DNA from: Bacteroidales bacterium
GTDB taxonomy: Bacteria > Bacteroidota > Bacteroidia > Bacteroidales > UBA10428
NCBI GenBank assembly: GCA_035913795.1
Contig: JAMIIA010000174.1
Location: 50,325-114,324 of the forward strand
Reading direction: 5' to 3'
DNA length: 64,000 nucleotides
Shown one piece after another: positions 3,263 through 29,100 of the stretch. The first letter of the stretch is position 1. Every line of letters begins with the position of its first letter. Under the pieces are notes generated by a model. It was not told the origin of the DNA. It made no database searches and saw only the letters and a list, made by a program, of their open reading frames with translations. The translations under genes and the position numbers were made by a program.

Positions 3263-4198
3263 TTATTTTGGATTTAGTAATTCAATTCTCTTTGAGACTA
3301 GTTTTTTTAACAAGTCCCTTTGTTCAAAGGTTAAAAAAGAGTTATCAATCCACCAGTGAATTTTACCTGAATTGTCGGCAAAAGATTTGTAGCAGTGGTA
3401 TATTTGTTTCTCATTCAATAGCAAATTCGAACCTAAATTATCAAAGTCTTTTTTGGAAAGTTCATTTTTCTTTCCATTTAAATTCAAACTCATTTGCTCG
3501 GGTTCGTTCTTTATTGCAAGATAAGTGCTAACCAGGTCGTAAGCAGGACTAAGACTAAATGTACCGTCTTCTCTTTCAAGCATTGAAAAATTTTTCAAGT
3601 GCATATCTGCATTCCCTGTAATGAAACTAAACAGAACAAGTTGATAATACCGTAACATATCCAGACCTGGTTGAGTTGAAAATTGCCTTATAGTTTTGCC
3701 CGCTTTCTCATAACTTCCTCTGTATTTGTGCTCTGTGAGGCTTTCAGAGAGTTGACACAAATCTTCACTTGCTATTTTAGTTGTTTTGTTCCTGTCAAAC
3801 CGCCTTGTAATGTATGCAAGCCTTCCGCTTTTCATTCTTACCAAACCATGTGTCGCTACTTCTATTCCCAATTCTGCTGCAAGGTGCATACATAAGTCCT
3901 CATTTTCTGGCAATGAAATGTATGTTTCACTTTGTGGTTTGATAATGTAGTTGCTTTTATCATCCACAATGGTAAAGCGCATATTTTTCTTGCTTTCTTC
4001 TAACCACAAACTTAGCTTAGGTTGTACTCCGGTTATTGCATTGTTTGCTCCAACAATTCTTTTCGCGTAATCACTTAATTTTTTTTCATCTATATCAAGC
4101 TCTGGCATCTGTTTCAATCCAAAAATATTAGTGATACACCTAATGTGATAATCAACTTCATCTAATGTCAGGGGCTTATAGCAAAGTAAGCAGTTCAT
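3263..4198 (-). CDS. hipT: HipA-family kinase toxin lacking the N-terminal subdomain (HipT-like)
   Basis: Gly-rich loop AITGVQPKLS, YIIKP, ENE, RRFDR, GNADMHLKNFS and LSPAYDL. Third gene of a HTH/HipA-N/kinase trio. Confidence 0.85.
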   Translation of the reverse strand: MNCLLCYKPLTLDEVDYHIRCITNIFGLKQMPELDIDEKKLSDYAKRIVGANNAITGVQPKLSLWLEESKKNMRFTIVDDKSNYIIKPQSETYISLPENEDLCMHLAAELGIEVATHGLVRMKSGRLAYITRRFDRNKTTKIASEDLCQLSESLTEHKYRGSYEKAGKTIRQFSTQPGLDMLRYYQLVLFSFITGNADMHLKNFSMLEREDGTFSLSPAYDLVSTYLAIKNEPEQMSLNLNGKKNELSKKDFDNLGSNLLLNEKQIYHCYKSFADNSGKIHWWIDNSFLTFEQRDLLKKLVSKRIELLNPK

Positions 4199-7597: not shown

Positions 7598-8236
7598 TCA
7601 CTGTAATTTCAAACGAGCAGCCATTGCCTCAAGGTCTGATTTCCCCCATGCATAGGGCAGGAATTCATCTTCCGGTTTTTTGGTGCTATTTTCTAATGCC
7701 AGTTGAATGCATTCGCCGGCTTGTTGCCTTCCATACTCTGAATCCGGATATTTTACAAGAAAATACTGCGCCAATACATAGTGAGCGCGGATATTTTTTT
7801 GATCGCCGGCGAGTGCATTTTTCAATAAAAAGGCGCAGTCAAGCAGGGCCACACTGTCGTTGGTATATTGGTATTGATGCAATTTCAGTTTTGCTTCGAG
7901 AATATTGAATTCAACCAAACCACTAAACTTTTTACCACTTTGATCGAAGAAGGTTTGTACTGCATTTAGAACAACGGGCTTATTATTTAAATTCGAGTCT
8001 TCGGTACACTTTAAGGAGGCATAGATATAATAATATGCTGACCTCCAGTCGTTAGGGTTTGTTTCGAATATTCTGTAGAAAAAAACCGAGCTTTGAGTGT
8101 AACCCTTAAGTGTATTCGCAGAATCCAACGATACTATTCCGGCATTTAATTGCTGGGCATACCAATCTTCGGTTTGCCCGCTCAAAGTGGTTTTTAAAAT
8201 CAACAGCAATAAGGCAGCTGTGAATATTTTATTCAT
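7598..8236 (-). CDS. Secreted helical (TPR-like) hypothetical protein
   Basis: Signal peptide MNKIFTAALLLLILK. ATG overlaps the stop region of the upstream gene. The ORF track starts it at 8257. Confidence 0.6.
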   Translation of the reverse strand: MNKIFTAALLLLILKTTLSGQTEDWYAQQLNAGIVSLDSANTLKGYTQSSVFFYRIFETNPNDWRSAYYYIYASLKCTEDSNLNNKPVVLNAVQTFFDQSGKKFSGLVEFNILEAKLKLHQYQYTNDSVALLDCAFLLKNALAGDQKNIRAHYVLAQYFLVKYPDSEYGRQQAGECIQLALENSTKKPEDEFLPYAWGKSDLEAMAARLKLQ

Positions 8237-10940
8237 GTGAAACAATAATTTTCTCATTTTTGGTAAAATCGTTGCTATTAAACTGAATAAAATAGATTCC
8301 GTCTTTTAAGCTTTGTTTTTTCAATCGAAAGCTTAACTCATGCTCGCCGGCTGCGATTGTTCCAGAATAAAAATCTTCCAACTTTTTACCATCAATGGTA
8401 TAAAGCGAAATTAAAACCTCCGATTGCGATTGAAGAAAGCAATGAACCGTAAAATTGTCAGAAACAAATGTCGGATAAATGTGCACCTGTTGCATATTGG
8501 CTTTGTTGTCGTCGATGCCGGTTTCCTCCTGAAAAAGGGCTAAAATTTGATCGTTTTTGTTAATCCTTAAACTATTGTTTGCAATGCTTTCAGATTTTAA
8601 GAACACACTTTCGTTCGATTTCCATTTATAAAATGGTTTATCGAAAGTGGAGGTATCATACGCATTTAGTGCAATATCGATGTTGCCAAAATAGGCAGCA
8701 TTCCAGGGCAAATTTGTAATCTGAAGCGAATTTACATCCAATGCAATGTTTTCTCGTGGTAAGGCGTCGAAGGTGATATTGTAGGGACCAGTGAGGTTGT
8801 AGCAGCTATCCAATTTGTTTTCTGCCCATGCACCGCATCTTCTTGTTACAAAATCTCTTAAGCGATCATAGTTTTTTTCCCATTCTTCATAGCTCCCGCC
8901 AGGCCAGCGTTCGTTATGCCGGTACATTTCGGGTGCAATTAACGCTTTAAGACTGTCGAGCTGGTGCAGCATATTTTCGCAGCTGAAAGTGGTATTGATT
9001 AAATCGATGTATCGCGAAATGTAATAATTATTAAACCCTGGGTTACCACGCAATTTATTGAGAATCTGAATATGCCTCTCCGGATCGGACCATTCGGTCA
9101 AATGATCGACGTTGCAAAAAGCTGCATTTGCTGAGGTGTCGGGTATTCCTGTGTAATTAATATAGAAGGCAAAAGAGGCATCGTTGTCCCAAAGAATATA
9201 GCCCCATTTTTTATGGTCCCCTTCTGGGTTAAGGCCTCTCCACCATCCTGTATTGTATACCAGCCAGTCGGATGACACAGAAATCGAGTGGCCAATTACA
9301 TAATCTGTTAAGCTTTCAACATCTAATTCAGCTGCTACTTTGTCGAAATTACTTTGGTTTGCCATCGAATGGCTGAAAATAAAATCGGTAAGCTCGTACC
9401 AATCTTCAAATGCCTGTTCACCTCCATATTCTGCCCAGGTATATCCCCAGGTTAAAAGGTATTGTATATCATATTTTCCCTGGTTGTAGTAATGCTCGGT
9501 ATAATCATGGTCATCGGGAATTTCTCTTATATCATATACTCCCCAGTAGTTGCCGTTTAAATAAACAACACATTTCGAGGCGGCCCTTACATCAAGTTTC
9601 ATATCTCCCTGCTTGCAAAGGTTTTGGAAATAGGCATCTCTAAGATGAGCGCTTCCCAAATTCGAAATGTTTTGTATGCCATCGGTAGTTGCAGGGTAGT
9701 TGTCGTCGCCGGAGGCACGTAATATGATGCGCTGAAAATTTTTCCTGTCGGAAAGGGTAAAGAGCTTTTCTTTTAACTCTTTGCTATACCCCATTTCGTC
9801 GCGGGCAACAAAATCGAGGCTTCGCTGATCGTTTACCCATGAATCCTGTCCATGCGAATTAAACTCACCATACGAATCGGCAGCTCTTGTTCCGCTGGTA
9901 TCGAAATATTCTATGGTTCCCCACGGACGGGCTTCTTTTAAGCCCATGGCCAAACTATCCAACAGGCTGCCGGAAATGGAAATTACAGGTAAGCTGTGAT
10001 TTTCGCTGATAAAATAAGTGCCGTATTGTATAAATCCAGGAAGAATAGTGGTGTCACTGTCTGCAATTATTGCTTTGAGAATGGTTGTCTTGTCAATGCT
10101 TACCGGCGCCGTATACACATAAGATTGTGTGCCAGGCTCTGAACCATCGACAGAATAATAAATGGTTTCATTCTCAGAAGCTGTGCCTGAAATACTCACT
10201 GCGATGGCACTGCTGTAAAATCCGGCATCGTGACTGAACTTGGGTTTGGGCGAATACTTTATAAACGATTTTTCGTTGCTGTTGGATTTTCCGGCGGTAG
10301 GATTTACAAACACACCCCAGTTTGATACTCCGTCATTTACCCTGCCATACGAACTACAGCCTTTTGTTTTTCGAATATCTATTGCATCAATCAGGTTGCC
10401 ATTCTTATCGGAAAGAAAAATGGTTTCTTTTTTGTCTTTGGTTTGGGTTAACCTAAAATTGGTATGAATGGTATCGTTTTCAATCAGATTTCTTCCACTG
10501 GCAAAAATTATTTTAAATCCTTTGGCAGGAATGGGGCTGCAGGAAGGTATCTGGTACTTGACAAGGTTGGTTTCCTTGTCGCTTAAGTAATAACCAGTTA
10601 TATCAATCGGTTCGTTGCCTGCATTGTATAATTCAATCCAATCTTCCAGTTTACCATAGTTATCGCGACAGGTAACGCAGGTGGAGTCTTCCATGGCATA
10701 CGACCAAACGTAAGGGATTGAATCCATGGTTGAAGAGTCGGCATTGAAAAAATCTTCTGTTTTTAAGTCCCAGATTATAGTCGTATCGTAATCATTCGAA
10801 TCATAAACCGGAAACCAAATTGTGTCATGCACTAAAACAACCCGCTTTATATTTGAACAGGAATACTCGTTAATGACAATTTGCGATTTTAGGTGGACTG
10901 AGATAAGGAAGAAAAGGAAAAGTAGAATTTTGTTTCTCAT
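8229..10940 (-). CDS. CotH-kinase-family protein with lamin-tail domain, Ig/CHB_HEX-like domain and T9SS domain
   Basis: IVINEY...DWIELYN (LTD); PKFSHDAGFY, IYYSVDGSEP; LNGNYWGVYDIRE, ILWDND (CotH); IYPT...GIYFI C-terminus. Confidence 0.85.
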   Translation of the reverse strand: MRNKILLFLFFLISVHLKSQIVINEYSCSNIKRVVLVHDTIWFPVYDSNDYDTTIIWDLKTEDFFNADSSTMDSIPYVWSYAMEDSTCVTCRDNYGKLEDWIELYNAGNEPIDITGYYLSDKETNLVKYQIPSCSPIPAKGFKIIFASGRNLIENDTIHTNFRLTQTKDKKETIFLSDKNGNLIDAIDIRKTKGCSSYGRVNDGVSNWGVFVNPTAGKSNSNEKSFIKYSPKPKFSHDAGFYSSAIAVSISGTASENETIYYSVDGSEPGTQSYVYTAPVSIDKTTILKAIIADSDTTILPGFIQYGTYFISENHSLPVISISGSLLDSLAMGLKEARPWGTIEYFDTSGTRAADSYGEFNSHGQDSWVNDQRSLDFVARDEMGYSKELKEKLFTLSDRKNFQRIILRASGDDNYPATTDGIQNISNLGSAHLRDAYFQNLCKQGDMKLDVRAASKCVVYLNGNYWGVYDIREIPDDHDYTEHYYNQGKYDIQYLLTWGYTWAEYGGEQAFEDWYELTDFIFSHSMANQSNFDKVAAELDVESLTDYVIGHSISVSSDWLVYNTGWWRGLNPEGDHKKWGYILWDNDASFAFYINYTGIPDTSANAAFCNVDHLTEWSDPERHIQILNKLRGNPGFNNYYISRYIDLINTTFSCENMLHQLDSLKALIAPEMYRHNERWPGGSYEEWEKNYDRLRDFVTRRCGAWAENKLDSCYNLTGPYNITFDALPRENIALDVNSLQITNLPWNAAYFGNIDIALNAYDTSTFDKPFYKWKSNESVFLKSESIANNSLRINKNDQILALFQEETGIDDNKANMQQVHIYPTFVSDNFTVHCFLQSQSEVLISLYTIDGKKLEDFYSGTIAAGEHELSFRLKKQSLKDGIYFIQFNSNDFTKNEKIIVSHE

Positions 10941-11276: not shown

Positions 11277-14141
11277 ATGAAAAAGTTTTATCTGAAAATA
11301 ATACTTCCTACAATCCTCACCATTTTATTGTTTATTCTAACGATATTCTTAATCATTATCCCTCGTTTCCAGCAGAATATCATGAACGGAAAGCGGGAAA
11401 TGATACAAGAGCTTACCAACTCGGCGTGGAGCATACTGTCGGAGTTTGAAACCGACGAGCGAAATGGACTACTTACACGCGAAGAGGCCCAGAAAATTGC
11501 AATTTCGAGAATACAGTATTTACGCTATGGCGATGAAGGCAAAGATTATTTTTGGATAACCGATACCTTTCCAAATATGATCATGCATCCGTTCAGGTCC
11601 GACCTCAATGGGAAGGACTTATCGGATTTTACCGACCCGCATGGTAAGAGGTTATTTGTAGAATGTGTCGAAACAGTTAAAAAATCGGAACATGGTTATG
11701 TAAACTACATGTGGCAATGGAAAGACGACTCGCTCCACATTGTTCCAAAGTTATCGTATGTTAAAATTTTTAAACCCTGGAACTGGGTTGTTGGAACAGG
11801 TATTTATATCGAAGATGTAAAGAAAGAGATTTCGGCCCTTTCCAGAAAATTGCTTTGGATATCGGTTGGCATATCCGTATTAACGGCTTTGCTGCTATTT
11901 TATATTATCAAACAAAGTTTGAACATCGAACACAAACGAATTGAAGCCGAAAAGGATTTAAACGAATCGAAAGAAAAATACCGAACACTTGTAGAAGCAG
12001 CAACCGAAGGTTTGTTGATGCTTGTTGACAGTAAAATCAGCTTTGCCAATGCGGTATTGAGTAGAATGATTGGGTACGAAACAACTGAGCTTATTCACCG
12101 TTCGCTCGATGAAATTATCAGCGAGAACAACAATAAAGATATCATCGATATTTTCTTAAAGAATTCTGTAATTAAAGAGGGGCAATTTGAGCTAAATCTT
12201 AAAAAGAAAAGCGGTGGATTTGTAGAAGTGCTTGTTACCACATCAACCGCCAAATTCTTTGGTAACAGAGTGAATATATTTATTGTGAAAGACATCAGTA
12301 TCGATCGGGGTCAGACTTTTTCCAACCTCGATTATCAAAAGTTGATTGGCACTTTAAACCTGGGGTTTTTTAAAGTAAGAATCGATACAAAAGGTAAAAT
12401 TTTGTTTGCCAACGAAACAGCCATCCGCATTTTTGGATTTGAGAGCTTACACGAACTTTCCGATGTAAATATTCTAAAACTATTTACGGATCCAGAAGAA
12501 AGAAAAAACCTCAGAAAAAGTCTTTTGGCCGAAGGGTATATTAAAAATAAAATTCTTGCTATAAACTCTAAAAACAAAAACAGTTCAATTGTTGCCTTGT
12601 CGCTAGTAGTCGTTGAGAATGAAAATCCTGAGCATATGGTGTGTGATGGAATAATCGAAGACATTACACTAAAAGAAAATGAGAAAACACAGTATAATAA
12701 TCTCATTGCCGATTTAAAATCAACTAGTTTTTTACTGGAGCAAGCCATTAAAAATTACATTATCCCATTTTATTCAGTCGATTCCGATTCGACAATAGGT
12801 GAAGCAGTCAGGATTTTATCGAAACAAAATACCGATTGTTTATTGCTTACAAAAAATGAAAACGACTACATCGGAATAATTTCGAATAACGACATTCAAA
12901 AACGGGTGCTATCCTTAAAACTGAACCTCGAGAATCCTGTTTATTTAATTATGAGTTCCCCTATTGTTTATGTAGGTTGCGATACTCCTGTGATAGATGC
13001 AATTAACCTTTGTGAGGATAAAAAAATAAACCACCTGGTTGTAGTGGATGAAACAAATACCATTACAGGAATATTTAGTACCAAAGCAATCTATAAATAC
13101 TTCACCAACTCACTCTCTCTCTACATCGACAAGGCAGGTAAGGCAGAAACAAACGATGAATTAAGGCAATGCTATAAGGCACATCAGCTATTTATTAAAC
13201 CGCTAATAAACAGCGATATATTTATTAAACATATCACCAATCTTACCTCCTCCTTTTCCGATTCGGTGGTGAAAAGAATTATTGAATTATCGATTCATAA
13301 ACTTGGTAAGCCACCTGTTGATTTTTCTTTTATATGTCTCGGCAGCGAGGGTAGAAGGGAAGAAAGTTTATTTACCGACCAGGACAATGCCATCATTTAC
13401 GAAGATGTTCCGGCAGAAAAAGAAGCTTTGGTAAGCGAATATTTTATTCAACTGGGCGAAATGGTATGCAACTCATTAAACCATGTAGGTTATTCGTATT
13501 GCAAGGGCAATGTGATGGCAAAAAATCCGCAGTGGAACAAACCAATAAGTACCTGGGAAAAGTATTTTACTCACTGGATCATCACCCCTGAGCCACAGAA
13601 TCTGTTGGGTGCAATAATTTTCTTCGACTTCAGAACCGTATATGGCAGCGAAGAATTTGCAGACCGATTAAGGAAAATGATTCATACTTTGATTTCGCAG
13701 CAATCGGTTTTTTTGTACCATCTGGCTTTTAACAGCTTTAATACCAAAACTCAGAATATATCTGGTGGTAACATTTTATCGGATAGTAATGCAGAAATGC
13801 TGGATTTAAAAGGCAGCATTAATCACATTATCATGTTTGCACGGACCTATTCTCTTCAAAATAATATATGGGCCACAAACACAATCGAAAGGTTGGAGGC
13901 ATTAAAATCGAAGCACATTATTGAAAAGAAGACTGTCGATGAAATTATTTTCGTGTACAACTATTTAATGAAACTACGTTTCAAAAACCAGATTAAACTT
14001 TTGGATAACAACTTACCCTTATCGAATGTATTAAATACAAAGGGTTTGATTGATATCGAAATTTCTATTCTAAAAAAACTGCTGTCGCAACTACCAGCCT
14101 ATCAAAACAAACTCAGTATCGATTTTCGAATAAGCACTTAA
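11277..14141 (+). CDS. Membrane protein: TM-sCache_2-TM-PAS-PAS-CBS pair-DUF294 nucleotidyltransferase-DUF294_C
   Basis: YFWITD..MIMHP..DPHGK..VNYMW..PKLSY..PWNWVVGTGIY (Cache); YRTLVE..EG (PAS); IGIISNNDI (CBS); CLGSEGRREESLFTDQDNA and IFFDFR..YG (DUF294). Confidence 0.85.
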   Translation: MKKFYLKIILPTILTILLFILTIFLIIIPRFQQNIMNGKREMIQELTNSAWSILSEFETDERNGLLTREEAQKIAISRIQYLRYGDEGKDYFWITDTFPNMIMHPFRSDLNGKDLSDFTDPHGKRLFVECVETVKKSEHGYVNYMWQWKDDSLHIVPKLSYVKIFKPWNWVVGTGIYIEDVKKEISALSRKLLWISVGISVLTALLLFYIIKQSLNIEHKRIEAEKDLNESKEKYRTLVEAATEGLLMLVDSKISFANAVLSRMIGYETTELIHRSLDEIISENNNKDIIDIFLKNSVIKEGQFELNLKKKSGGFVEVLVTTSTAKFFGNRVNIFIVKDISIDRGQTFSNLDYQKLIGTLNLGFFKVRIDTKGKILFANETAIRIFGFESLHELSDVNILKLFTDPEERKNLRKSLLAEGYIKNKILAINSKNKNSSIVALSLVVVENENPEHMVCDGIIEDITLKENEKTQYNNLIADLKSTSFLLEQAIKNYIIPFYSVDSDSTIGEAVRILSKQNTDCLLLTKNENDYIGIISNNDIQKRVLSLKLNLENPVYLIMSSPIVYVGCDTPVIDAINLCEDKKINHLVVVDETNTITGIFSTKAIYKYFTNSLSLYIDKAGKAETNDELRQCYKAHQLFIKPLINSDIFIKHITNLTSSFSDSVVKRIIELSIHKLGKPPVDFSFICLGSEGRREESLFTDQDNAIIYEDVPAEKEALVSEYFIQLGEMVCNSLNHVGYSYCKGNVMAKNPQWNKPISTWEKYFTHWIITPEPQNLLGAIIFFDFRTVYGSEEFADRLRKMIHTLISQQSVFLYHLAFNSFNTKTQNISGGNILSDSNAEMLDLKGSINHIIMFARTYSLQNNIWATNTIERLEALKSKHIIEKKTVDEIIFVYNYLMKLRFKNQIKLLDNNLPLSNVLNTKGLIDIEISILKKLLSQLPAYQNKLSIDFRIST

Positions 14142-14166
14142 AAGGTATAAAACGGTGTTAAAAATA

Positions 14167-14197
14167 CCCGCCCCTAACCCCTCCAAAGGAGGGGAAT
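14167..14197. repeat. REP-like GC hairpin between convergent genes
   Basis: cccctaa-CCCCTCC aaa GGAGGGG-aa; could also act as a terminator. Confidence 0.45.
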
Positions 14198-14251
14198 TGT
14201 TCACTCGGTAATACTTTCACCAAAACTCAACTCCGAATACGCCTATTTTAT

Positions 14252-15007
14252 TCAGATCGAAAAATAGGCATTCCGCTTAAAACTTTTGTGCTCATTGCTT
14301 TGCACATAGCCCAACTGATTGGTTAGTAAAATCGTATTTCCAACTTGCAAAGGCTTTTGATTAAAATGGCTATGGCCATAAATCCAGAAATTGACATTAC
14401 TGGACTCTATAAAACCGGTTAAATCGACACAAAAAGCTTCGTTGATGGAGCTGTTTTTATGCTCAGAAGAGTTACACAAATTCGAGGGCAAGTGATGGCT
14501 TACTACCACAGTTTTCTCATGCAATTCTTTTACAGATTGTTGTATAAACTCAAAACCTTCGATATGCAGCAGGTTGTATTCTTTCGTTTTAAGCTTTTTA
14601 TTCTTGTGCGAAATGCTTGTAAAATCTGAAACCCCCAGTTCAATATTTCTCTCGTTTTCAGGACTTATTTTCGTCCACAATGTGCTAAAAACGAAGCGAA
14701 TGTTTTCATAAATTAACGCAACATTGTTTACGATATTGATATTGTCTCTTATTCGAATATTGTACGAATTACTGAATTCGGTAATATCCTTGTAGTAAAA
14801 TTCGTGATTGCCCGGCACCCAAAAAACCTGTTTATAGTTTTCAGCGATAAAACCAAAAAATGAGTCGTTTAAAAATTCATCATGGAGGGGAATAATATCT
14901 CCGGCTAACAATAAAATATCGCCACTAACTTTAAGAGGGTTTTTAGAAATATACCTGCTGTTTTGACCAAATTCAAGGTGCAAATCAGAACAATACTGTA
15001 TTCTCAT
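14252..15007 (-). CDS. Calcineurin-like metallophosphoesterase
   Basis: All five motifs are present: SDLH, AGDI, PGNHE, SHH and GHSH. Confidence 0.9.
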   Translation of the reverse strand: MRIQYCSDLHLEFGQNSRYISKNPLKVSGDILLLAGDIIPLHDEFLNDSFFGFIAENYKQVFWVPGNHEFYYKDITEFSNSYNIRIRDNINIVNNVALIYENIRFVFSTLWTKISPENERNIELGVSDFTSISHKNKKLKTKEYNLLHIEGFEFIQQSVKELHEKTVVVSHHLPSNLCNSSEHKNSSINEAFCVDLTGFIESSNVNFWIYGHSHFNQKPLQVGNTILLTNQLGYVQSNEHKSFKRNAYFSI

Positions 15008-15091
15008 CTATTTTTTATCTAAATGACTTAGCATAAATCACTTATTTTTATTTCCGATCTAAATATTGCGAATAAAACCTCTATTTAAAAG

Positions 15092-15121
15092 TTTGCTCGT
15101 ATGCTTTAAATGATAACTTTG
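15092..15121 (+). promoter_or_regulatory. Bacteroidota sigma-A promoter for DUF485-actP-porin
   Basis: TTTG (15092) - 18 bp - TAACTTTG (15114). Confidence 0.55.
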
Positions 15122-15163
15122 CCGACAAAATTTATTTTAATTCAAAATTAAAAACAAAAATAT

Positions 15164-15436
15164 ATGTTACATGAACCCGTAGTAGAAATTGGAACTGACA
15201 AAGCTGCAGCAAGAAAAGCAAAGCTAGGCGTAAAAATGTTCATTGCTTACACTATTATTTATGCTGGTTTTGTGCTTATTGGTTTAACCAAACCCGAGTT
15301 AATGGGGTTGAAGATATTAGGTGGACAAAACCTGGCCATTGTTTATGGGTTTGGGTTAATTCTGCTTGCCATAATTATGGGCTTTGTCTATAATTATTTC
15401 TGCACAAGGTTGGAAAATAATTTAAATAAAAACTAA
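15164..15436 (+). CDS. DUF485 (YjcH-like) small membrane partner of ActP
   Basis: Two TM segments, YAGFVLI...LAIVYGFGLI; lies directly upstream of the SSS transporter. Confidence 0.8.
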   Translation: MLHEPVVEIGTDKAAARKAKLGVKMFIAYTIIYAGFVLIGLTKPELMGLKILGGQNLAIVYGFGLILLAIIMGFVYNYFCTRLENNLNKN

Positions 15437-15453
15437 TACTAAAGTAAGAAGAT

Positions 15454-17376
15454 ATGATTTACGAAGTTTCAAATTTAGCAATTGCTATTTTTTTATTTAT
15501 CGTGGGTTTAGTATTAGGCCTCTCCTTTTACTTTGCAAGAAAAACTAAGTCGGCTTCAAGCTATTATGCTGCAGGCGGAAATATCCATTGGTTTGTAAAC
15601 GGTATCGCTTTTGCCGGCGATTATTTATCAGCCGCCTCCTTTTTAGGAATATGCGGAATGATAGCATTTTCGGGTTATGACGGATTTCTATACTCCATCG
15701 GATACCTTGCAGGATGGGTGGTTGCTTTGTTTTTAGTTGCCGAACCACTTAAAAAACTGGGTAAGTATACTTTTACCGATGCCTTAGATTCCAAGTTTAA
15801 TTCGAAACAAATAAAATTGGCGGCATCAATCAGTACGCTTATTGTTTCTATTTTCTACCTCATTCCACAAATGGTTGGAGCCGGCGATCTGGTTGTTCCT
15901 TTGCTCGGATTACCCCATTGGATGGGTGTTGTGCTGGTTGGTTCAATTGTAATTTATATTGTTGCCACTGCAGGTATGACCTCAACCACTTATGTGCAGT
16001 TTGTGAAAGGTGCTTTATTGGTTATTTTCTCTACCGTACTTACAGTTTATATTTTAAATAACGGACTGACATTAAATCCAAATGAGAATTACCACAAATT
16101 TGCCCAAATCAACGCAACGATTACAAACGATACAATTGTAAGTGTACCTGATTCAACTTTGATTGTTAAAAACACCAAAGTTGTTGATAAGATCGTGTTT
16201 GTTAAACTTCAGAAAGAAGGAATCGACGGCTGGTATAAACTTAATAAAACAGAGGATAAAGCAGTTCTCGATGAAATGCCTTATATCACAGTAAACCCTG
16301 GTGGCGAAAAATTATACAATGGCGCCCCAAAATCCGAGAAGAAATTTTATCAGGTCGGACACCTCAGCAAAATTATTGTGGATGGAAAAGAAGTCGATAA
16401 AACAGGCCCTGTTGGACCATTTGAGTTTTTAGAAACCATTGAAAGCAGCGAAGTCGTGCGTTTCACAAAAAAGGCCTTCTCCGATGGCGATGACAAAGTA
16501 ACGGTATGGTACCAGAATGTTACCAAAGGTGAAAATGTGATGAAACCAGGTCTTTTATACAAGCTATCAAAATCGGCAGGAGCATCTTTCTGGGACAGGT
16601 TAAACTTCTTATCGTTAATGTTAGCCCTATTTTTAGGAACCTCGGCATTGCCACACATTTTAATCCGTTATTATACTGTACCAAGTCAAAGAGCCGCAAG
16701 AAAATCGACAATAGTAGCAATTGCAGCGATTGGATTCTTCTATGTTCTAACTCTTTATATGGGACTTGGTTCGATGATTAGCGGCGCTTTAGATGTGGAG
16801 AGCAGCAATATGTCTGCACCTCTTTTAGCAAAAACTTTTGGGGTAGGTATTTTTTCCATAATCTCTGCAATTGCTTTTGCCACCGTGCTTGGTACTGTAA
16901 GCGGACTAATTGTAGCCTCTTCTGGTGCTATTGCGCACGATTTTATCGATAAGTACCTGCAGGTAGAAATGACCGACAAGGCGAAAGTAAAGGCAGGAAA
17001 AATTGCTGCTATATGCGTTGGTATTTTTGCTATCATTTTGGGAATTTTGTTTAAAGGGATGAACGTATCATTTCTGGTGGGACTGGCTTTTGCAGTGGCT
17101 GCTTCTGCTAACCTTCCGGCAATTCTGTTCCTTTTATTCTGGAAAAAGACCACAGCCAAGGGTATTGCCTGGTCTATTATTGTGGGTATAGTATCTTCAA
17201 TAGGCATTATACTATTCTCGCCTACCATGTTCGACAAGTATGGTCTTGTACCAGCAGATGCGCCAATTCCGCTCGACAACCCTGGTATTATCTCCATTCC
17301 ATTGGCCGTAATTACTTTGGTGCTTGTATCACTGATGACCCAGAAAGACAACTCAACAAAAGATTTTAGCAAATAA
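15454..17376 (+). CDS. actP: Cation/acetate symporter (SLC5/SSS, ActP-like) with a large soluble insertion
   Basis: YYAAGG, NGIAFAGDYLSAASFLG, GTSALPHILIRYYTVP, AFATVLGTVSGL and AASANLP. Confidence 0.85.
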   Translation: MIYEVSNLAIAIFLFIVGLVLGLSFYFARKTKSASSYYAAGGNIHWFVNGIAFAGDYLSAASFLGICGMIAFSGYDGFLYSIGYLAGWVVALFLVAEPLKKLGKYTFTDALDSKFNSKQIKLAASISTLIVSIFYLIPQMVGAGDLVVPLLGLPHWMGVVLVGSIVIYIVATAGMTSTTYVQFVKGALLVIFSTVLTVYILNNGLTLNPNENYHKFAQINATITNDTIVSVPDSTLIVKNTKVVDKIVFVKLQKEGIDGWYKLNKTEDKAVLDEMPYITVNPGGEKLYNGAPKSEKKFYQVGHLSKIIVDGKEVDKTGPVGPFEFLETIESSEVVRFTKKAFSDGDDKVTVWYQNVTKGENVMKPGLLYKLSKSAGASFWDRLNFLSLMLALFLGTSALPHILIRYYTVPSQRAARKSTIVAIAAIGFFYVLTLYMGLGSMISGALDVESSNMSAPLLAKTFGVGIFSIISAIAFATVLGTVSGLIVASSGAIAHDFIDKYLQVEMTDKAKVKAGKIAAICVGIFAIILGILFKGMNVSFLVGLAFAVAASANLPAILFLLFWKKTTAKGIAWSIIVGIVSSIGIILFSPTMFDKYGLVPADAPIPLDNPGIISIPLAVITLVLVSLMTQKDNSTKDFSK

Positions 17377-17387
17377 TATTTTTAGAA

Positions 17388-18710
17388 ATGAAGAAATTAG
17401 GTTTATTATTCTTGGCATTTTATTCTCTGGCAGTTCAGGCCCAGGAGAATAAAGAAGCCCCAAAATTTGGTATCAGCTTTACGGGATTTGTAAAAACAGA
17501 TATTTTTTACGATACCCGCCAAACCGTGAATATCCGCGAAGGGCATTTTTTACTTTATCCAGAAGATATCGCCCCAGATGCCAATAAGAATGATATCAAT
17601 GATAAGTCAACTTTTAACATGCTTTCCATTCAATCGAGGTTAAAAGGTTCTATTACTGGCCCCGATGCTTTTGGGGCAAAAACTTCGGGCGTGTTGGAAG
17701 CCGATTTCTTTGGTAACGAAAACACCAGCTTTGGCGATTTAAATGGTTTCCGTTTGCGACATGCCTTTGTGAAGCTGAACTGGAAATCGACCGAATTGTT
17801 GGTTGGCCAATACTGGCATCCGATGTTTATTGCCGAATCGTTTCCGGGTACTGTATCGTTCAATACAGGTGCGCCTTTTCAACCCTTTTCGCGTAATCCG
17901 CAAATAAGACTTAGTAAAACTTTCGGAGGCTTGAAATTAATTGGTTGCCTGTTCACGCAACGCGATTTTACCAGCTCGGGCCCTGAATACGTTAAAAATG
18001 CCACCAATGAGTACAACGCCGTTACAGTTGCGAGTTCCAAATACATGCGGAATGCAGCTGTTCCGAATGCACATTTTCAGGTGCAGTTCGCACCCGACTC
18101 GTCGGAACATTTATTTGGTGCAGGAATTGATTATAAAACCCTACTGCCCGAGCTTTATACGGTTGATAATACCAAAAAACTGCAATATAAATCGTCTGAA
18201 ACGATTGGCAGTTTTTCTGCAATAGCCTTTGCTAAATTCAAATTTAAACCTGTATCGATCCGTATAGAGGGTGTTTTTGCACAGAATGCATTCGACATGG
18301 CCATGATTGGCGGCTATGCTGTGCAGCAGGTGAATGATTCGCTCACCGGTGCAAAAAGCTTTACGAATCTGAACACAGCCTCTGTTTGGCTCGATATGAA
18401 TACACATGGGAAAAAAATTCAGTTTGGGCTTTTTACCGGGTATACTAAGAATCTGGGCACAGAAGACAACATCCAAAAAGATAGTTACTATAAAAAAGAA
18501 ACTTACTATGCGAGAGGCTCTAATATTGATAATGTATACAGAGTGGCCCCACGGGTTGTGTTTATAGCCGGAAAGTTAGATATAGCGTTTGAACTTGAAC
18601 ACACAGTTGCCACCTATGGTATTGCCAATGGCGATGGCCAGGGCCGTGTTACAAGCGGGAAAGATGTATCGAATACCAGAGGACTTTTAGCCTTTGTATA
18701 TAAATTCTAG
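17388..18710 (+). CDS. DcaP-like outer-membrane porin
   Basis: Signal peptide; GFVKTD, QSRL, FRLRHAFVKL, LLVGQYWHPMF, RNPQIR; C-terminal aromatic YKF. Confidence 0.7.
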   Translation: MKKLGLLFLAFYSLAVQAQENKEAPKFGISFTGFVKTDIFYDTRQTVNIREGHFLLYPEDIAPDANKNDINDKSTFNMLSIQSRLKGSITGPDAFGAKTSGVLEADFFGNENTSFGDLNGFRLRHAFVKLNWKSTELLVGQYWHPMFIAESFPGTVSFNTGAPFQPFSRNPQIRLSKTFGGLKLIGCLFTQRDFTSSGPEYVKNATNEYNAVTVASSKYMRNAAVPNAHFQVQFAPDSSEHLFGAGIDYKTLLPELYTVDNTKKLQYKSSETIGSFSAIAFAKFKFKPVSIRIEGVFAQNAFDMAMIGGYAVQQVNDSLTGAKSFTNLNTASVWLDMNTHGKKIQFGLFTGYTKNLGTEDNIQKDSYYKKETYYARGSNIDNVYRVAPRVVFIAGKLDIAFELEHTVATYGIANGDGQGRVTSGKDVSNTRGLLAFVYKF

Positions 18711-22741: not shown

Positions 22742-23164
22742 ACAATTACCTAGGCATTGGAAGAAAACTCAATTTACCAATAAAAAATGGAAATACTTTG
22801 CGTGTTGCCTTGTATTGGTAATTTATGAAGCAGAAATAGGTTTTGTGGAGTTTTAGTAGTGGTATTTCAAGGCAGACAGAGTAAAAAAACTTTGGTAGTT
22901 ATTTGTTTTGTATTGTTTTTAGTGCATGGTTTTTTTTGAAGCTTTAAATAGGGTCAATTACCTTGGTCAATTCATACTATAAGAATGAAAATCTCTACAA
23001 AACACCAGGTCGATAGACTTATCGAGGATTTGGAACTCAAAAATCAGGCGCTTACGAAAATATTACTGGAATCTGAAAAGGCAAGAAAGAAAAACTTCAA
23101 TCAGCCACAACAGGTCACAAATATTGCCAACCCAAATAACAACCTTATTAAATTCTTTTCTGCT

Positions 23165-26100
23165 ATGAAAGCGAAATTTTTTACTATCCGGTTTATTGTT
23201 TTTTTAACCATTGCATCTGCTTTTATTTTGAGTGTAGATGCTCAAACTTTTGAAAATGGCGTAATGAAAGGTGTGGTTCGAGTAAAGCTCGATCCAAAAC
23301 TTGTGACAGCTCAAACCGGTATCAAGCCTTTTTCTAAGAAAGGAATTGTGTATACAGGCATACAGCAGCTCGATAATGTGAATACTTCGATTAAATCAAC
23401 CTCGGTTAAAAGGGTTTTTGCTTACTCCGAAAAGTTTGAAGAAAGGCACCGCAAATATGGTTTGCACCTTTGGTACGAGATACAATATTCTGAAGCTTTA
23501 AGTGCTACTGAGGTGGCAAAAGCCTATGCAGGTGTATCTGGAGTAATTGAATCGGAGCCTGTGTACGAAAAAAAGCTTATTGATAAGGTATTATCTACAC
23601 AAGCCACTGATGTTACTGCATGGTCGGGCAATTTCAACGACCCGTATCTTCCAGATCAGTGGCATTACAACAATACAGGACAAACAGGTGGAACCATTGG
23701 CGCTGACATCAACTTATACGAAGCATGGGAAACTTCAACGGGTTCGCCCAAAGTAATAGTTTCGGTGCATGATGTGGGTATTGATTATTCACACGAAGAT
23801 CTTGCCTCAAATATGTGGGTAAACCAGGCTGAATTCAATGGCACAAAAGGTGTGGACGATGATGGGAATGGATACCTCGATGACATTTACGGGTTTAATT
23901 TTGTGGATAATTATGGGGAGATTACCCCAGGCGACCATGCAACTCATGTTGCCGGCATTATTGGTGCAGTCAATAACAATGGCATCGGAATAAGTGGTAT
24001 TGCAGGTGGCACCAACCACAACGATGGTGTTAAACTTATGTCGTGCCAGATAATCGGCGGTTATGCTCGTGTGGAAGAGTCGTTCATTTATGCTGCCGAT
24101 AATGGCGCTGTTATATCGCAGAATAGTTGGGGATATTCCTATCCTGGATCGGTAGAGCAGGTAGTGCTTGATGCTATTGATTATTTTATAGCCGAAGCGG
24201 GTAATTTTTCCGGAAGTCTGATGAAAGGTGGAGTTGTTATTTTTGCAGCAGGAAATGCTAACTGGGATGCCGATTTTTGGCCAGGGTACTATGAAAATGT
24301 GATTTCTGTATCGGCCTTAAACCACAACAATGTTAAGGCGGAATATTCTAATTATGGATCGTGGGTAGACATAGCTGCACCTGGTGGAGATTATAGCAAT
24401 GGTATTGCAACCAATGTACTCAGTACCCTTGCCAATAACAACTACGGTTATATGGAAGGCACTTCGATGGCCTGTCCGCATGTTTCGGGCGTTGCGGCTC
24501 TTGTTGTTGCTGCAAATAATAACCAAAACTTTACCAACACAGCTTTAAAAAACCATTTGTTAACAGCCTACCGGTTAATCGATACCATAACTGCCAATGA
24601 GTCTTTTGCCGGCAAACTTGGAATTGGTGTAATCGATGCGGCATTGGCAGTGGCTTTCGACAGCGGCATTGCACCCAATGCCATTGCCAATTTAAATGTA
24701 ACAGGTACTTCCCAGGATTTTGCAACCCTCCAATGGTCAGTGCCCGCGGATGGCGATGACGATAAGCCAATTGGATTCGAGGTTTTGTATTCTTTGCAGA
24801 ACATTACTCCGGCAACCATTCAGTTTGCAAAAACAAAGCTTATCGATAATAGTCAAAGTGTAGGCATCTTAGTAAATGCCGAAGTCAACGCTCTTATTCC
24901 ATTATCTACTTACTTTTTTGCAGTTCGTTCAATCGATCGTTGGGGAAATATTTCAAACCTGTCCAATATTGTATCGGCCAATACCAACGAAGGTCCTAAT
25001 GCCAGTGTTGACCGATCGGATCTTAGCATTCACATCGATGCTTCTGTTTCACTCATTGGTTCCGATACCATTAACCTCCTTAATTCCGGACAGGGAATTT
25101 TGCGTTGGACGGCCGATGCACGTCACGTTTCTCAAATCGATCAGTACAACAATACTCACATTCATTACCCCAAGCTTAAACAGCCGCTGGGTGATAAAAG
25201 AATTTCGGTTTCATCGAATGAATTGACCAGAGAAAATAAAATAGTTCCCATGGGGCAGCAATATGAGTATAACGAACTTAACTATTGCGATTATTCGAGG
25301 GGTTTATTTATTCTGGGCGAAACCAATCTAAACTATACCAACTCTTCTGCAACAAGGTTTTTTGTTACCGATGCCAATGGTTTTAACCTTACCCAGGTTC
25401 AGGCCTTGCTTAAGCAAGACAATGTTTTCGGGCCTATCGTTTTAGAAGTTTATTTGGGCGAAAGCATTTACAATTCCCGTTTAGTTTATGCGCAGGAAGT
25501 ATACAGCTATAGCAAAACAGAATATCAGCATAGTATTGATCTGGAGGAGCAGCTCTTTTTTCAGCAGGGCGAATACTTTTGGCTTGTTTTTCATGTACCT
25601 GCAGGGAATTTATATCCGCTTGGCGCAGGTTTTGAGCTGGCAACCAACCACAGTAATAATTGTTTCTTCAGCCTAAATCTCGGACAGTCGTGGCAAAGGC
25701 TCGAGGATGTGTATTGGGACAACCGCCTTGTGTGGGCAGTTACTGCCATAAGTCAGTATAAAACACTCGGTGAATATATTAGCATTTTACCTGATAATGG
25801 CGATATAGCTTCAGCTGGTGCGCAACACATCGAGGTTTCAGTAGATGCCTCGAACCTTGTGAGTGGTATTTACAATTCGAACATAGTGCTTCAGACCAAC
25901 GAACCCGAAGAACAAATTATTCGAATTCCCATAAATCTGACCATAACAGGTCGGAAGCCAATTATTACCAGCAACGATATCACCGATTTTGGAGGAATAT
26001 TATACGGAAACGAAAAAACCGTTGACATTGCATTCCAAAACGAAGGATATGGACCTTTCGAGAACATAGCTGCATCGATTTCCGATTCGCAGTTTACAAT

Positions 26101-29100
26101 TGTGGGTTCGCCACCCTACAGCATTAGTGCACGAAGCGAACAGATGATTTCGATCACGTTCAAACCTTCGGCACCAGGCAACAGCAATGCCGTTCTAACC
26201 CTGTCGGACGATAAAGGAAACACCTTTACATTCAGCTTATTTGGTGTAGCAGCCCAACCTCCGGTAATCGCAATTTCCCCGGCCGATACTACCATCTCAG
26301 GCTTATCAATTGGCGATACAGTTACTTCAGAATTATACCTTATCAACCAGGGTAACTATCCGCTGAAATATTATTTTCCTTCGTTTGCCGATGGATCAAA
26401 CATTGATCAGGTTGACAAATACATTTCAAAATTCGGTTATTCTTCCTCTATTGATACAGCTTTGTTTGAGTGGAATGAAATTTCGTCGAATGGCACAAAA
26501 GTAACCGACGAATTTAAAATCGATGCAAAACGGTTTTCCGATCCGGTTTCTTTAGGCTTCAGTTTCCCCTTTTTCGGAAAACCGGAAACACAGGTGTTTA
26601 TTACCGATCGGTTTCTGTTATCCTTCGATCAGAATACTACCTTCAACGTGAGTCCGATACGTTTTAAGGATCAATATAGTCCTGACAGGTTTATCGGTGC
26701 CATTGGCTTGCAGTTTTACCCGGAAGTAAGTGGCGATGTATATTATAAATGCCTGCCCGACAGGTTTATTGTTGAGTATAAAAATGCAGCAATGTATTAT
26801 TCTGATCCGGTAACATGGCAATTGGAATATGTAAACATCGATGTTCAAATGGTATTGTTTGATAATGGCGACATCGGATTTTTTTATAATAATGTATCTT
26901 CTTTATATAATTCTAACGAGTTCAATTATGGTGCTTATATTGGAATCGAGGACCAAAATATCGACGATGGTTTACGCGTATACGATCAGAATTCGAATTA
27001 TCAAGACGGCAAATTTTGTCCTATCGACGATAGTGCAGCGGTTATAATCAAGAATCCGGGTATGGGAATTGTTAAGCAGCTGGATAATTCGTTCGGAACG
27101 ATTCAACCAGGCGATTCAGTAATGGTAAATTATACCATCGAAACTTCCGCTCTCTGGCAAGATAATTTTACCGAGCGCTTGAGCATTGTTTCAAACGATC
27201 CTTTTAATAATCCGGTATATTCAACCATTCACCTCAATATAACTAGCGGTGGTTTGCCGGAAGTATGCCTGAATACCGATACCCTCAATTTTGGAGACGT
27301 ATTCCAAACCGGCAAAAAGGCTTTATCTTTTATTGCTATCAACTCGGGTAGCCTTGCGGTAGATATCGATACAATGTATTTTGTTCAGAACGATTATGTT
27401 ATTTCGAACGGCCAGGTACCCATTGAATTAAAGGCAAAGCACTCCCTGATATTCGAAATTAGCGTTCTGACAGCAACCCTTGGAGTTAAAAATGATATCC
27501 TAATTATTAAAACCAACGATGGAGATTCGTTGCAATTAAGTTTGCTGGGTGAAATCATTGAAGCACCAATAATCTCAGTGGATTTAACTACCATTAATGA
27601 AACACTCAATCATGGCGATAGTACTTTGTTAAATTTTACTGTGAATAATACGGGTGGCAATAATCTCGAAATTTCACCTGTCGGAAACGATTGGCTTACT
27701 GTTTCCACCACAAAGCAACCAATTTCCTATAATTATTCAATGAGTTCAGGCAAAGAGCTGAATGGTCCTGTTTGCAACTGGGTAGATATATTACAAACCG
27801 GAACAGAACACTCTTCGACTCTGGATCCTTTCGATCCGCAAAAGTTATGGGGTACTTTGGCATTGCCCTTCCCTTTTAAATTTTATGGAATTGATTACGA
27901 TACGATATACTTTACTTTAAGCGGTTTATTGTCGTTTGATAATTCCAATGGCTCGGATCTGGCTTGGGGCCCGCCAAATACAATTCCTTCTATGGAGCTA
28001 CCCAATAACTTCATATCCCCATTATGGGCGTTTGGTGGTCCGGCATACAAAGTTTATTTCCCTGATGCAGGAATTTATACCATGGTTTTCAGCGATAAAG
28101 TTGTCATTACCTATCAGGATTTCTTGAACAACTTTGGCATGGGCGATCCGGTATCGTTTCAGGCTATACTGTATGCCGATGGTAAAATCAAATTTCAATA
28201 CAATATAACTGGTTCCGACATTACATCGAACCTAGCACTTATTGGCATTGAAAACCAGGATGGCACCAAAGGAAAACAGGCATCTTATCGCCAGTGGTTT
28301 GTTACCGATGATCTTGCTATTATTTTTATACCAGCCGATACCTACGAAGTCGAGCCAGCAGCCTCAGCTACATTCGATTTAAAAGTTTCTGCAAAAGAAC
28401 TTTACGGAGGGACCTACCAGGGTAAGCTGGCCATAAATAACAACACACCCGATACAGCCAACTATGAAATACCTGCAAGTCTGACAGTAATTGGCGAACC
28501 AATTCTCGAAGCGCCTGCTCACATTCAATTCGACACCATATTTGTATATGATACCATAGACGATTGGGGGATGCCCATACCAAAATCCCATATCCGCGAG
28601 TTTTTACTAAAAAATACGGGCACATCATTGGTAAGCGTATCTTCGATTTACCTGCTGCAAAATGTAGAAACTGTGGCAGAGTCGTATGTATGTATTCACG
28701 ATCCGTGGTTTGGGCTCTTGTGTTCCTGGGCAGATATTTCCACCGAAACTTTTCCTGTTGAGCTAAGACCAGGCGAACAGAAATCTTTCCGCGTGCGTAT
28801 TACACCCACCGGAAGTAATATTAACCTGAATGATACCCTGATTATTCAATCGAATGCATTGGTGAATGAACTCAAGATTCCGGTTTCGGCATTTGTTTCT
28901 CTGCCACCGGTACTCAATATACAGGATAATATAATTACCGTAATTGCTCATAATAGTTCGCACCAGGAGAATCGTAGTCTTAATCTGGATAATACTGCCG
29001 GTTCGGCCAATCTGAACTATAGTCTGTCTCTTAAATTCGAACGAACCGGAAGCGAACCTTCTGCCGCAAGTTTGAGTGCTGTAAAGACACTGTTTGGCGA

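Follow-up and report, generated by a model that had tools for sequence, protein, structure and literature searches.

A predicted carboxylate receptor with a GlnE-like nucleotidyltransferase output, beside a phosphoesterase gene and an ActP-type uptake operon in a Bacteroidales genome

A 64,000-nucleotide stretch of the genome of a Bacteroidales bacterium (assembly GCA_035913795.1, contig JAMIIA010000174.1, positions 50,325 to 114,324 of the forward strand; hereafter the window) encodes a 954-residue membrane protein, P0001, in which a Cache sensor domain is joined to a nucleotidyltransferase module of the DUF294 family. Its gene, an open reading frame (ORF) at 11277-14141 on the plus strand, is followed by genes for a metallophosphoesterase (P0002), a small DUF485 membrane protein (P0003), an ActP/MctC-type sodium:solute symporter (P0004) and a putative outer-membrane channel (P0005). 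The evidence points to a carboxylate-sensing receptor with a GlnE-like nucleotidyltransferase output that is functionally coupled to the phosphoesterase and to carboxylate uptake. We hold this with more confidence than the fuller proposal, to which we give an even chance, that P0001 and P0002 are a carboxylate-gated, GlnD-like writer/eraser pair whose reversible nucleotidylation of an uptake-system protein probably serves as a brake.

P0001 is a transmembrane variant of COG2905 and not a new gene family. An earlier interpretation of this DNA, here called the sequence-only reading, had recognised the receptor but treated it as a lone one-component enzyme, overlooking the conserved adjacent phosphoesterase gene (here 14252-15007) that turns the model into one of a writer and an eraser. 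It had also put the system forward as a candidate for an undescribed one. That holds in so far as it is uncharacterised in the searched literature, but the proteins are not rare, since relatives occur in at least 489 species genomes and are already named by NCBI 'DUF294 nucleotidyltransferase-like domain-containing protein'.

Domain Architecture and Topology of the Receptor

Pfam and hydropathy analyses give P0001 the order transmembrane (TM) helix, sCache_2, TM helix, PAS, PAS, CBS pair, DUF294 and DUF294_C, which together with the ORF bears out the 954-residue architecture proposed earlier. All of these elements lie on the plus strand. The first TM helix (TM1; 11298-11354, residues 8-26) reaches a score of 2.96 in a 19-residue Kyte-Doolittle window and the second (TM2; 11853-11909, residues 193-211) a score of 2.37, and there is no hydrophobic segment beyond residue 217. 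Because the two segments bracket the sCache_2 domain (11382-11837, residues 36-187; Pfam PF17200, E 1.4e-40), this domain is placed between two TM helices outside the cytoplasm and residues 212-954 within it, an orientation deduced from this arrangement of segments. The two PAS domains (11973-12671) cover residues 233-341 and ~350-465, the limits of the second being approximate, and the PAS_9, PAS and PAS_8 models of Pfam as well as TIGR00229 each match in two stretches. The CBS pair (12768-13103, residues ~498-609) is likewise matched in two stretches by the Pfam CBS model (E 3.4e-17), and CBS-pair proteins from the PDB match residues 488-646. In an alignment of 20 orthologues with 59-87% identity (A1), no sequence deviates at G533 or D539 of the first CBS motif, a constancy compatible with the binding of an adenosine ligand by the pair.

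The C-terminal half consists of the DUF294 core, a Pol-beta-type nucleotidyltransferase (13191-13598, residues 639-774; PF03445, E 4.2e-42), and the helical DUF294_C domain (13710-14120, residues 812-948; PF10335, E 6.4e-20), both scoring above the Pfam gathering scores. The Pfam scan finds no HisKA/HATPase, MCP-signal, GGDEF or cyclase match in P0001, in line with the earlier statement that it has no kinase, MCP or cyclase output, and no cNMP_binding match.

The Sensor Pocket

In a phmmer search against the PDB, the Cache domain of P0001 matches the sensor domain of PscD (5G4Y/5G4Z) and Adeh_3718 (4K08) with an E value of 1.1e-32. In PscD the carboxylate of the ligand is hydrogen-bonded by Tyr90, His103, Tyr143 and Lys156, the ligand is sandwiched by Trp92 and Trp145, and Phe126 closes the pocket; dissociation constants are 23-356 uM for glycolate, acetate, propionate and pyruvate (PMC5062169). 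The HMMER alignment equates Y91, W93, H104, F127, Y144, W146 and K158 of P0001 with PscD Y90, W92, H103, F126, Y143, W145 and K156, so that the two proteins agree at all seven ligand-contact positions, none of which varies in A1. Y91, H104, Y144 and K158 fall in the motifs DYFW, MHP, YMW and PK, respectively. The best NCBIfam match of the Cache region is MctS, a sensor kinase of monocarboxylate transport. On the strength of the seven-residue identity and invariance and of the MctS match, it is strongly predicted that the Cache domain binds C2/C3 monocarboxylates, and the carboxylate sensing claimed for it by the sequence-only reading thus gains support. PscD of P. syringae, McpP of P. putida, Adeh_3718 of A. 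dehalogenans and the MctS kinase have a sensor domain of the same family, but their outputs are an MCP signalling domain or a histidine kinase, whereas the output of P0001 is a nucleotidyltransferase.

The Nucleotidyltransferase Output

The segment LGSEGRREESLFTDQDNA of P0001 contains G689, S690, D701 and D703, and FICLGSEGRREESLFTDQDNAIIY shows the G-S...D-x-D signature of Pol-beta-type nucleotidyltransferases, with the spacing G689-S690-x10-D701-x-D703. D784, just beyond the DUF294 core, may be the third catalytic carboxylate. These five residues are invariant both in A1 and in a broader alignment of 42 sequences that extends down to 35% identity (A2), and the motif had rightly been described as intact.

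An AlphaFold2 model of residues 611-954, built on A2, has a pLDDT of 91.4 and a pTM of 0.89, with the DUF294_C helical bundle predicted at high confidence. When this model was compared with the PDB by Foldseek, only four matches were significant and all of them are protein adenylyltransferases: the GlnE N-terminal domain (1V4A), the GlnE C-terminal adenylylation domain (3K7D, two chains) and DrrA in its Rab8a-bound form (6YX5_B), with E values of 2.6e-8 to 3.6e-7, a probability of 1.00 and TMq of 0.64-0.70. Aminoglycoside nucleotidyltransferases follow at E>=0.03, poly(A) polymerases and terminal uridylyltransferases (TUTases) are insignificant (E>0.6, TM<0.2), and no cyclase, CD-NTase or cGAS-like enzyme is among the significant matches. 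Judged by the model, the closest structural relatives of the output are enzymes that place AMP on protein side chains. The kinship with GlnE and DrrA is visible by fold only, as phmmer against the PDB gives zero matches in the nucleotidyltransferase half, and Pfam at E<=10 recognises in residues 611-954, besides DUF294 and DUF294_C, a single weak and unrelated family but no other nucleotidyltransferase family. The DUF294_C domain has been classed with the C-terminal domains of GlnD and GlnE (PMC3710099), and its Pfam label is 'substrate binding'.

Both GlnD/GlnE and the Legionella protein DrrA/SidM combine a nucleotidyltransferase with a helical domain in the fold seen in P0001 (Foldseek E ~1e-8 to GlnE and DrrA), and a motif of the style G-x-x-G-R-x-E...[ST]-D-x-D is common to GlnD, GlnE, DrrA and P0001. 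P0001 differs from these enzymes in its input domains, in being anchored to the membrane and in having the proposed eraser encoded by a separate gene.

The Phosphoesterase Partner

P0002 (14252-15007, minus strand, 251 residues) matches the Pfam Metallophos family with an E value of 6.8e-16 and has no hydrophobic segment in the hydropathy analysis; by sequence it is a cytoplasmic calcineurin-like metallophosphoesterase. Residues D8, H10, G36, D37, G66, N67, H68, E69, H171/H172, G211, H212 and H214 are invariant in 32 orthologues and presumably make up the metal motifs D-x-H, G-D, G-N-H-[DE], H and G-H-x-H. The best PDB match both by sequence and by fold is PptH of M. tuberculosis (6UNC), with a Foldseek E value of 3.5e-5 and a TM-score of 0.56-0.58. 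PptH strips phosphopantetheine from carrier proteins, that is, it cleaves a Ser-O-phosphodiester modification, and the likeness of the modelled P0002 to it would fit, as soft evidence, a de-nucleotidylating role.

The comparative evidence for a partnership comes from 80 related loci, in which all ORFs were clustered, and from a subset of 41 in which the receptor gene has flanks of 6 kb or more on each side (the full-flank loci). A P0002-type gene follows the receptor gene in 43 of the 80, always convergently, which amounts to nearly all orthologues of >45% identity that have a downstream flank. An AP_endonuc_2 TIM-barrel protein is found in 13 loci and a second metallophosphoesterase family in nine. 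Taken together, one of these three clustered esterases is present in 34 of the 41 full-flank loci, and an esterase of another group is found in three of the other seven: in L044 (7281-10859, 1193 residues) an RNase_T domain is fused N-terminally to the receptor nucleotidyltransferase, in L071 a third metallophosphoesterase gene lies 1 bp downstream of the receptor gene, and in L077 a gene for a PHP protein lies 9 bp upstream of it. A phosphoesterase therefore directly adjoins, or is fused to, the nucleotidyltransferase in 37 of the 41 loci. The folds of the partners vary by lineage and comprise Metallophos (three groups that do not co-cluster), the AP_endonuc_2 TIM barrel, PHP and RNase_T, which are four unrelated superfamilies. 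RNase_T (DEDDh) is fused N-terminal to TM1 in 22 protein clusters of 1070-1232 residues (P0125-P0146), an arrangement that would place the writer and the presumed eraser on one polypeptide. This swapping of partners among unrelated phosphoesterases, together with the fusions, is the strongest comparative signal in the data; such replacement and fusion imply a shared bond as the site of action of the nucleotidyltransferase and a phosphodiesterase.

The Uptake Operon

The genes for P0003 (15164-15436, 90 residues; DUF485, Pfam E 1.2e-10), P0004 (15454-17376, 640 residues; SSF, Pfam E 2.2e-71) and P0005 (17388-18710, 440 residues) lie on the plus strand and, being separated by gaps of only 17 and 11 nucleotides, respectively, are taken to form one operon. 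P0003 is a YjcH/MctB-like small membrane protein with two hydrophobic segments in its hydropathy profile, and its gene directly precedes that of the symporter, just as the small DUF485 subunit is followed by an SSF symporter in YjcH-ActP of E. coli and MctB-MctC of C. glutamicum. P0004 scores 455 bits against the NCBIfam model for MctC (cut-off 670) and 408.9 against that for ActP, PRK09395 (cut-off 750). Both scores lie below the equivalog or subfamily cut-offs, and the protein is by sequence related to MctC and ActP without reaching equivalog status. Orthologues of P0004 in related loci are 59-90% identical. Besides its scores, P0004 is unlike ActP and MctC in carrying an insert and in its co-transcription with a putative outer-membrane protein that falls outside Pfam.

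The insert comprises ~150-180 residues (residues ~205-380) between the hydrophobic segments 183-201 and 386-404, and the Pfam SSF and NCBIfam models match P0004 in two stretches, one on either side of it. It is kept in 37 orthologues (636-644 residues where measured), although its sequence is poorly conserved, and by analogy with the usual SSS topology it is probably periplasmic.

P0005 matches zero Pfam families even at E<=10. Its N-terminus resembles a signal peptide and its last residue is Phe. It is a conserved, presumably secreted neighbour, probably an outer-membrane channel, and a candidate for an uncatalogued outer-membrane channel family for small carboxylates. Proteins of this type adjoin either symporter type in 37 of the 80 loci. 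The sequence-only reading had placed the receptor about 1 kb upstream of 'DUF485-actP-porin'. The gene order stands, but the gap contains the minus-strand P0002 gene, and 'porin' is a putative assignment.

Distribution and Gene Neighbourhood

The best 120 database matches of P0001 (59-88% identical, ~953 residues) all have the full architecture, and their sources are metagenome-assembled genomes of Bacteroidota, Bacteroidales and Ignavibacteria. When one genome per species was scanned with two Cache-domain peptides, a retrieval biased to conserved Cache pockets, relatives were found in at least 489 genomes, labelled as Bacteroidota, Ignavibacteriota, Calditrichota, Acidobacteriota (Aminicenantes) and a few other phyla. 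This breadth, with the strong E values of the domains, led us to reject a reading of the gene as a chance ORF or an artefact. P0001 is the sole DUF294 gene in its 3.9-Mb genome. Of 301 genomes sampled evenly from the phylum, 76 contain the DUF294 module, but only four contain it in frames of at least 960 residues; the two ~640-residue forms examined (L085 and L086) have the order cNMP_binding-CBS-CBS-DUF294-DUF294_C and are abutted by an RNase_T exonuclease gene in the same operon. Within COG2905 the receptor form is accordingly in the minority, and these two genomes of the same phylum confirm the statement that the family normally takes the form of soluble cNMP-CBS-DUF294 proteins.

The sequence-only reading had staked its proposal on a conserved linkage to actP and DUF485, and this linkage holds. 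A sodium:solute symporter (DUF485-ActP or DUF4212-SSS) lies within 8 kb in 37 of the 41 full-flank loci and a P0005-type outer-membrane protein is present in 27. Over the 80 loci, an ActP-type symporter occurs in 39, DUF485 in 38, a P0005-type protein in 37, a second symporter type in 17 and the DUF4212 subunit of the latter in 15, while no acs or other metabolic-enzyme cluster occurs in more than a few.

In 34 of the 80 loci, the esterase gene and the transporter operon are separated by a gene for a Crp/Fnr-type regulator with cNMP_binding and HTH_Crp_2 domains (e.g. L001:11652-12341, minus strand). The protein has a conserved N-terminal C-x2-C-x3-C motif, which we take to be FNR-like. It is absent from the window, and the genome has no orthologue (best paralogues 26-28% identical, one of them at 43702-44340), for which reason the regulator was dropped as a required part of the system. 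The upstream gene for a CotH-domain protein and a downstream gene for a histidine kinase with TPR repeats were rejected as parts as well, as they are conserved in zero related loci.

Soluble Relatives and Published Phenotypes

No biochemistry is reported in the searched literature that names DUF294, PF03445 or COG2905. The soluble form of COG2905, as in PP_0354/PP_0353 of P. alloputida and PA3233/PA3232 of P. aeruginosa, has the same CBS-DUF294-DUF294_C half and an obligatory phosphoesterase neighbour, and is likewise tied by regulon, cofitness or adjacency to monocarboxylate uptake or short-chain fatty-acid (SCFA) metabolism. In P0001 the cNMP input of the soluble form is replaced by TM, sCache_2, TM, PAS and PAS, making a protein of 954 instead of ~640 residues, and the esterase is a metallophosphoesterase instead of an RNase_T/DEDDh exonuclease.

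Published genetic data concern these soluble forms. In the random barcode transposon sequencing (RB-TnSeq) study of Price et al., DUF4212 symporter genes required for the use of D,L-lactate or D-alanine were cofit with a nearby COG2905/RNase T gene (10.1101/072470). In P. aeruginosa, PA3232-PA3235 are co-induced ~16-fold on propionate (PMC9765439). In P. alloputida, PP_0353 (RNase_T-like) and PP_0354 (cNMP-CBS-nucleotidyltransferase) are among the genes most dependent on MxtR/ErdR, and loss of either leads to poorer growth on propionate; growth on pyruvate is impaired by loss of PP_0353, like loss of actP-I or yjcH, while loss of PP_0354 has no effect (10.64898/2026.09.07.749794). Drawing on the uridylylation of PII, those authors raise the possibility of protein modification without deciding the matter (10.64898/2026.09.07.749794). 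A brake model would predict this pattern, in which the eraser mutant resembles the transporter mutants and the writer mutant shows no defect on pyruvate, an interpretation that is ours and not that of the authors.

Proposed Mechanism and Alternative Explanations

In the mechanism proposed here, the periplasmic sCache_2 domain of P0001 would bind small monocarboxylates of the acetate, glycolate, propionate and pyruvate class. The signal would pass through TM2, the two PAS domains and the CBS pair, the last of which may add an input from cytoplasmic adenosine nucleotides. These inputs would control a nucleotidyltransferase of the GlnE/GlnD/DrrA type that transfers a nucleoside monophosphate (AMP or UMP) onto a hydroxyl side chain of a protein, and cytoplasmic P0002 would hydrolyse the phosphodiester and so reset the switch. 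The pair may thereby tune the DUF485-ActP-outer-membrane-channel module post-translationally, with the modification braking carboxylate overload and the esterase releasing the brake. Beyond the identity of the ligand pocket and the fold, every step of the mechanism is one that we infer: that a ligand binds, that a protein is what becomes nucleotidylated, which protein this is, whether its modification inhibits or activates, and what the CBS pair binds. The adjacent uptake module is the most economical target, because the receptor subfamily is tied to two symporter subfamilies and a common outer-membrane protein and to no metabolic enzyme gene.

The logic of a sensor-regulated writer and a metal-dependent phosphoesterase eraser is that of GlnD and of DrrA/SidD. 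In GlnD the HD domain is the metal-dependent eraser, and the SidD deAMPylase is encoded beside DrrA. GlnD-PII-AmtB provides a precedent for the control of a transporter by nucleotidylation.

Several observations weigh against this mechanism. The fold likeness to GlnE and DrrA comes with a sequence identity of 11-12%, the Pfam models for GlnE and GlnD do not match residues 611-954 even at E<=10, and no DUF294 member has a demonstrated activity, substrate or nucleotide in the searched literature. Because the 80 loci were retrieved by two Cache-domain peptides, the conservation of Y91, W93, Y144 and W146 is partly by construction. The model of P0002 is moderate (pLDDT 76.5, with the C-terminal 36 residues <50) and its TM-score to PptH is modest; the genes for P0001 and P0002 are convergent in the window and not co-transcribed. 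Four of the 41 full-flank loci have no recognisable esterase and four have no nearby symporter, and the two soluble relatives have no transporter among the neighbouring genes scanned. The conservation profiles of DUF485 and ActP singled out no acceptor residue on the cytoplasmic side. The Pseudomonas phenotypes are mild and come from a soluble, distantly related form. Lastly, all of the partner esterase superfamilies also include 3'-5' exonucleases, which makes a nucleic-acid 3' end a possible substrate.

This last point leads to an alternative that we consider unlikely, in which nucleotides are added by the nucleotidyltransferase to an RNA 3' end (that of an mRNA, sRNA or tRNA) and trimmed off by the partner, so that expression of the symporter operon and not its activity is controlled. 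RNase_T/DEDDh, PHP, AP_endonuc_2 (including Endo IV) and Metallophos do contain known 3'-5' exonucleases or 3'-diesterases, and the authors of the Pseudomonas study name tRNA and rRNA as substrates of RNase T-like domains (10.64898/2026.09.07.749794). However, the clear Foldseek matches of the nucleotidyltransferase model are to protein AMPylases, and no significant one involves a poly(A) polymerase, a CCA-adding enzyme or a TUTase. P0002 is closest in fold to the protein-demodifying PptH and not to Mre11 or SbcD, and a membrane-anchored receptor would be an odd site for an RNA-tailing enzyme.

Reversible protein nucleotidylation could also be directed at a cytoplasmic enzyme or regulator of SCFA metabolism, such as acetyl-CoA synthetase or a PII-like adaptor. 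We regard such a target as improbable, although several facts speak for it. The established targets of GlnE and GlnD, glutamine synthetase and PII, are both soluble, and the missing transporter among the scanned neighbours of the two soluble Bacteroidota relatives and the lack of a standout acceptor residue in DUF485 and ActP count in the same direction. In Pseudomonas, the operon for the nucleotidyltransferase and the exonuclease belongs to the MxtR/ErdR regulon together with acsA, scpC and actP, and PP_0353/PP_0354 are not adjacent to actP-I (PP_1742/PP_1743) (10.64898/2026.09.07.749794). Against this, the receptor subfamily is linked over the 80 loci to two symporter subfamilies and an outer-membrane protein with no recurrent metabolic enzyme gene, and anchoring sets the catalytic domain beside membrane proteins.

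The sequence-only reading had left the choice between nucleotidylation of a target and synthesis of a nucleotide messenger. The significant fold matches, being confined to GlnE and DrrA, favour the former, and the absence of significant likeness to nucleotide cyclases or CD-NTases tells against the latter. It would require that the nucleotidyltransferase makes a diffusible cyclic or linear signal in response to carboxylate, that the phosphoesterase degrades it and that a protein with a cNMP domain reads it. The Crp/Fnr-type regulator encoded between esterase and transporter operon in 34 of the 80 loci could be such a reader, the soluble relatives carry a cNMP-binding domain of their own, and P0002 has a weak CpdA-like match (E 3.3e-5, below the cut-off). 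But AP_endonuc_2 and PHP proteins are not known to act as messenger phosphodiesterases. The idea loses further weight because the Cys motif of the linked regulator looks FNR-like, and because the regulator is missing from the window and has no orthologue in the genome (best 28% identity), where the set of nucleotidyltransferase, esterase and transporter is nevertheless intact. We think a nucleotide messenger very unlikely.

Hardly credible is a module that is inert, or serves only in demodification or as a scaffold, in a neighbourhood that reflects shared regulation only: the top Foldseek match, 1V4A, is the GlnE N-terminal domain, which we take to be the deadenylylating half of that enzyme, and DUF294 has no known activity, but the motif residues are strictly invariant to 35% identity and the repeated replacement and fusion of phosphoesterases would be hard to explain without a common phosphodiester substrate.

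Other Features of the Window

The intergenic gap between the convergent P0001 and P0002 genes is 110 nucleotides long and contains a GC-rich 7-bp inverted repeat (14178-14194, CCCCTCC-AAA-GGAGGGG), which may serve as a bidirectional terminator although it was not among the sites picked out by the terminator scan. Upstream of the DUF485 gene, TTTG (15092-15095) and TAACTTTG (15114-15121) are spaced by 18 nucleotides, with the start codon 43 nucleotides downstream, and the pair resembles what we take to be the -33/-7 promoter consensus of Bacteroidota. A scan for sigma-70 promoters and terminators gave 38 sites against 25.6 expected, with zero at the intergenic regions of interest, and is uninformative for a genome of the Bacteroidota type.

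Elsewhere in the window, a 903-residue protein encoded at 8229-10940 (minus strand) has lamin-tail, CHB_HEX_C/Fn3-associated and CotH kinase domains and a C-terminal sorting domain of the type IX secretion system (T9SS) but has no conserved counterpart beside the receptor gene in any related locus, and a secreted S8 subtilase of 2568 residues encoded at 22985-30691 (plus strand) has Ig-like/DUF1573 repeats and a T9SS sorting tail. The 311-residue HipA_C-domain protein encoded at 3263-4198 (minus strand; E 7e-48) is possibly a HipA-type toxin kinase.

Significance

The DUF294/COG2905 family is old and widespread, and has repeatedly been tied to the uptake of acetate, propionate, pyruvate and lactate, including in Pseudomonas, Vibrio and Shewanella. 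The receptor form described here supplies this family with a predictable C2/C3 carboxylate input, a membrane location and a minimal set of writer, eraser and transporter. With such a defined input, location and gene set, the function of the family becomes directly testable. More tentatively, and short of an even chance, the system may represent a new mode of transmembrane signalling, in which the output of a receptor is the reversible AMPylation or UMPylation of a component of nutrient uptake, with a dedicated but evolutionarily exchangeable phosphoesterase as eraser, and which would be a membrane-bound, carboxylate-sensing counterpart of GlnD-PII-AmtB. If the writer/eraser model is correct, protein nucleotidylation would join phosphorylation, methylation-coupled chemotaxis, cyclic-nucleotide synthesis and DNA binding among the few outputs of transmembrane receptors in bacteria, and the uptake of short-chain fatty acids would be gated post-translationally. 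Such gating would matter in anaerobic sediments, digesters and communities of the gut type, in which short-chain acids sustain Bacteroidota and Ignavibacteriota.

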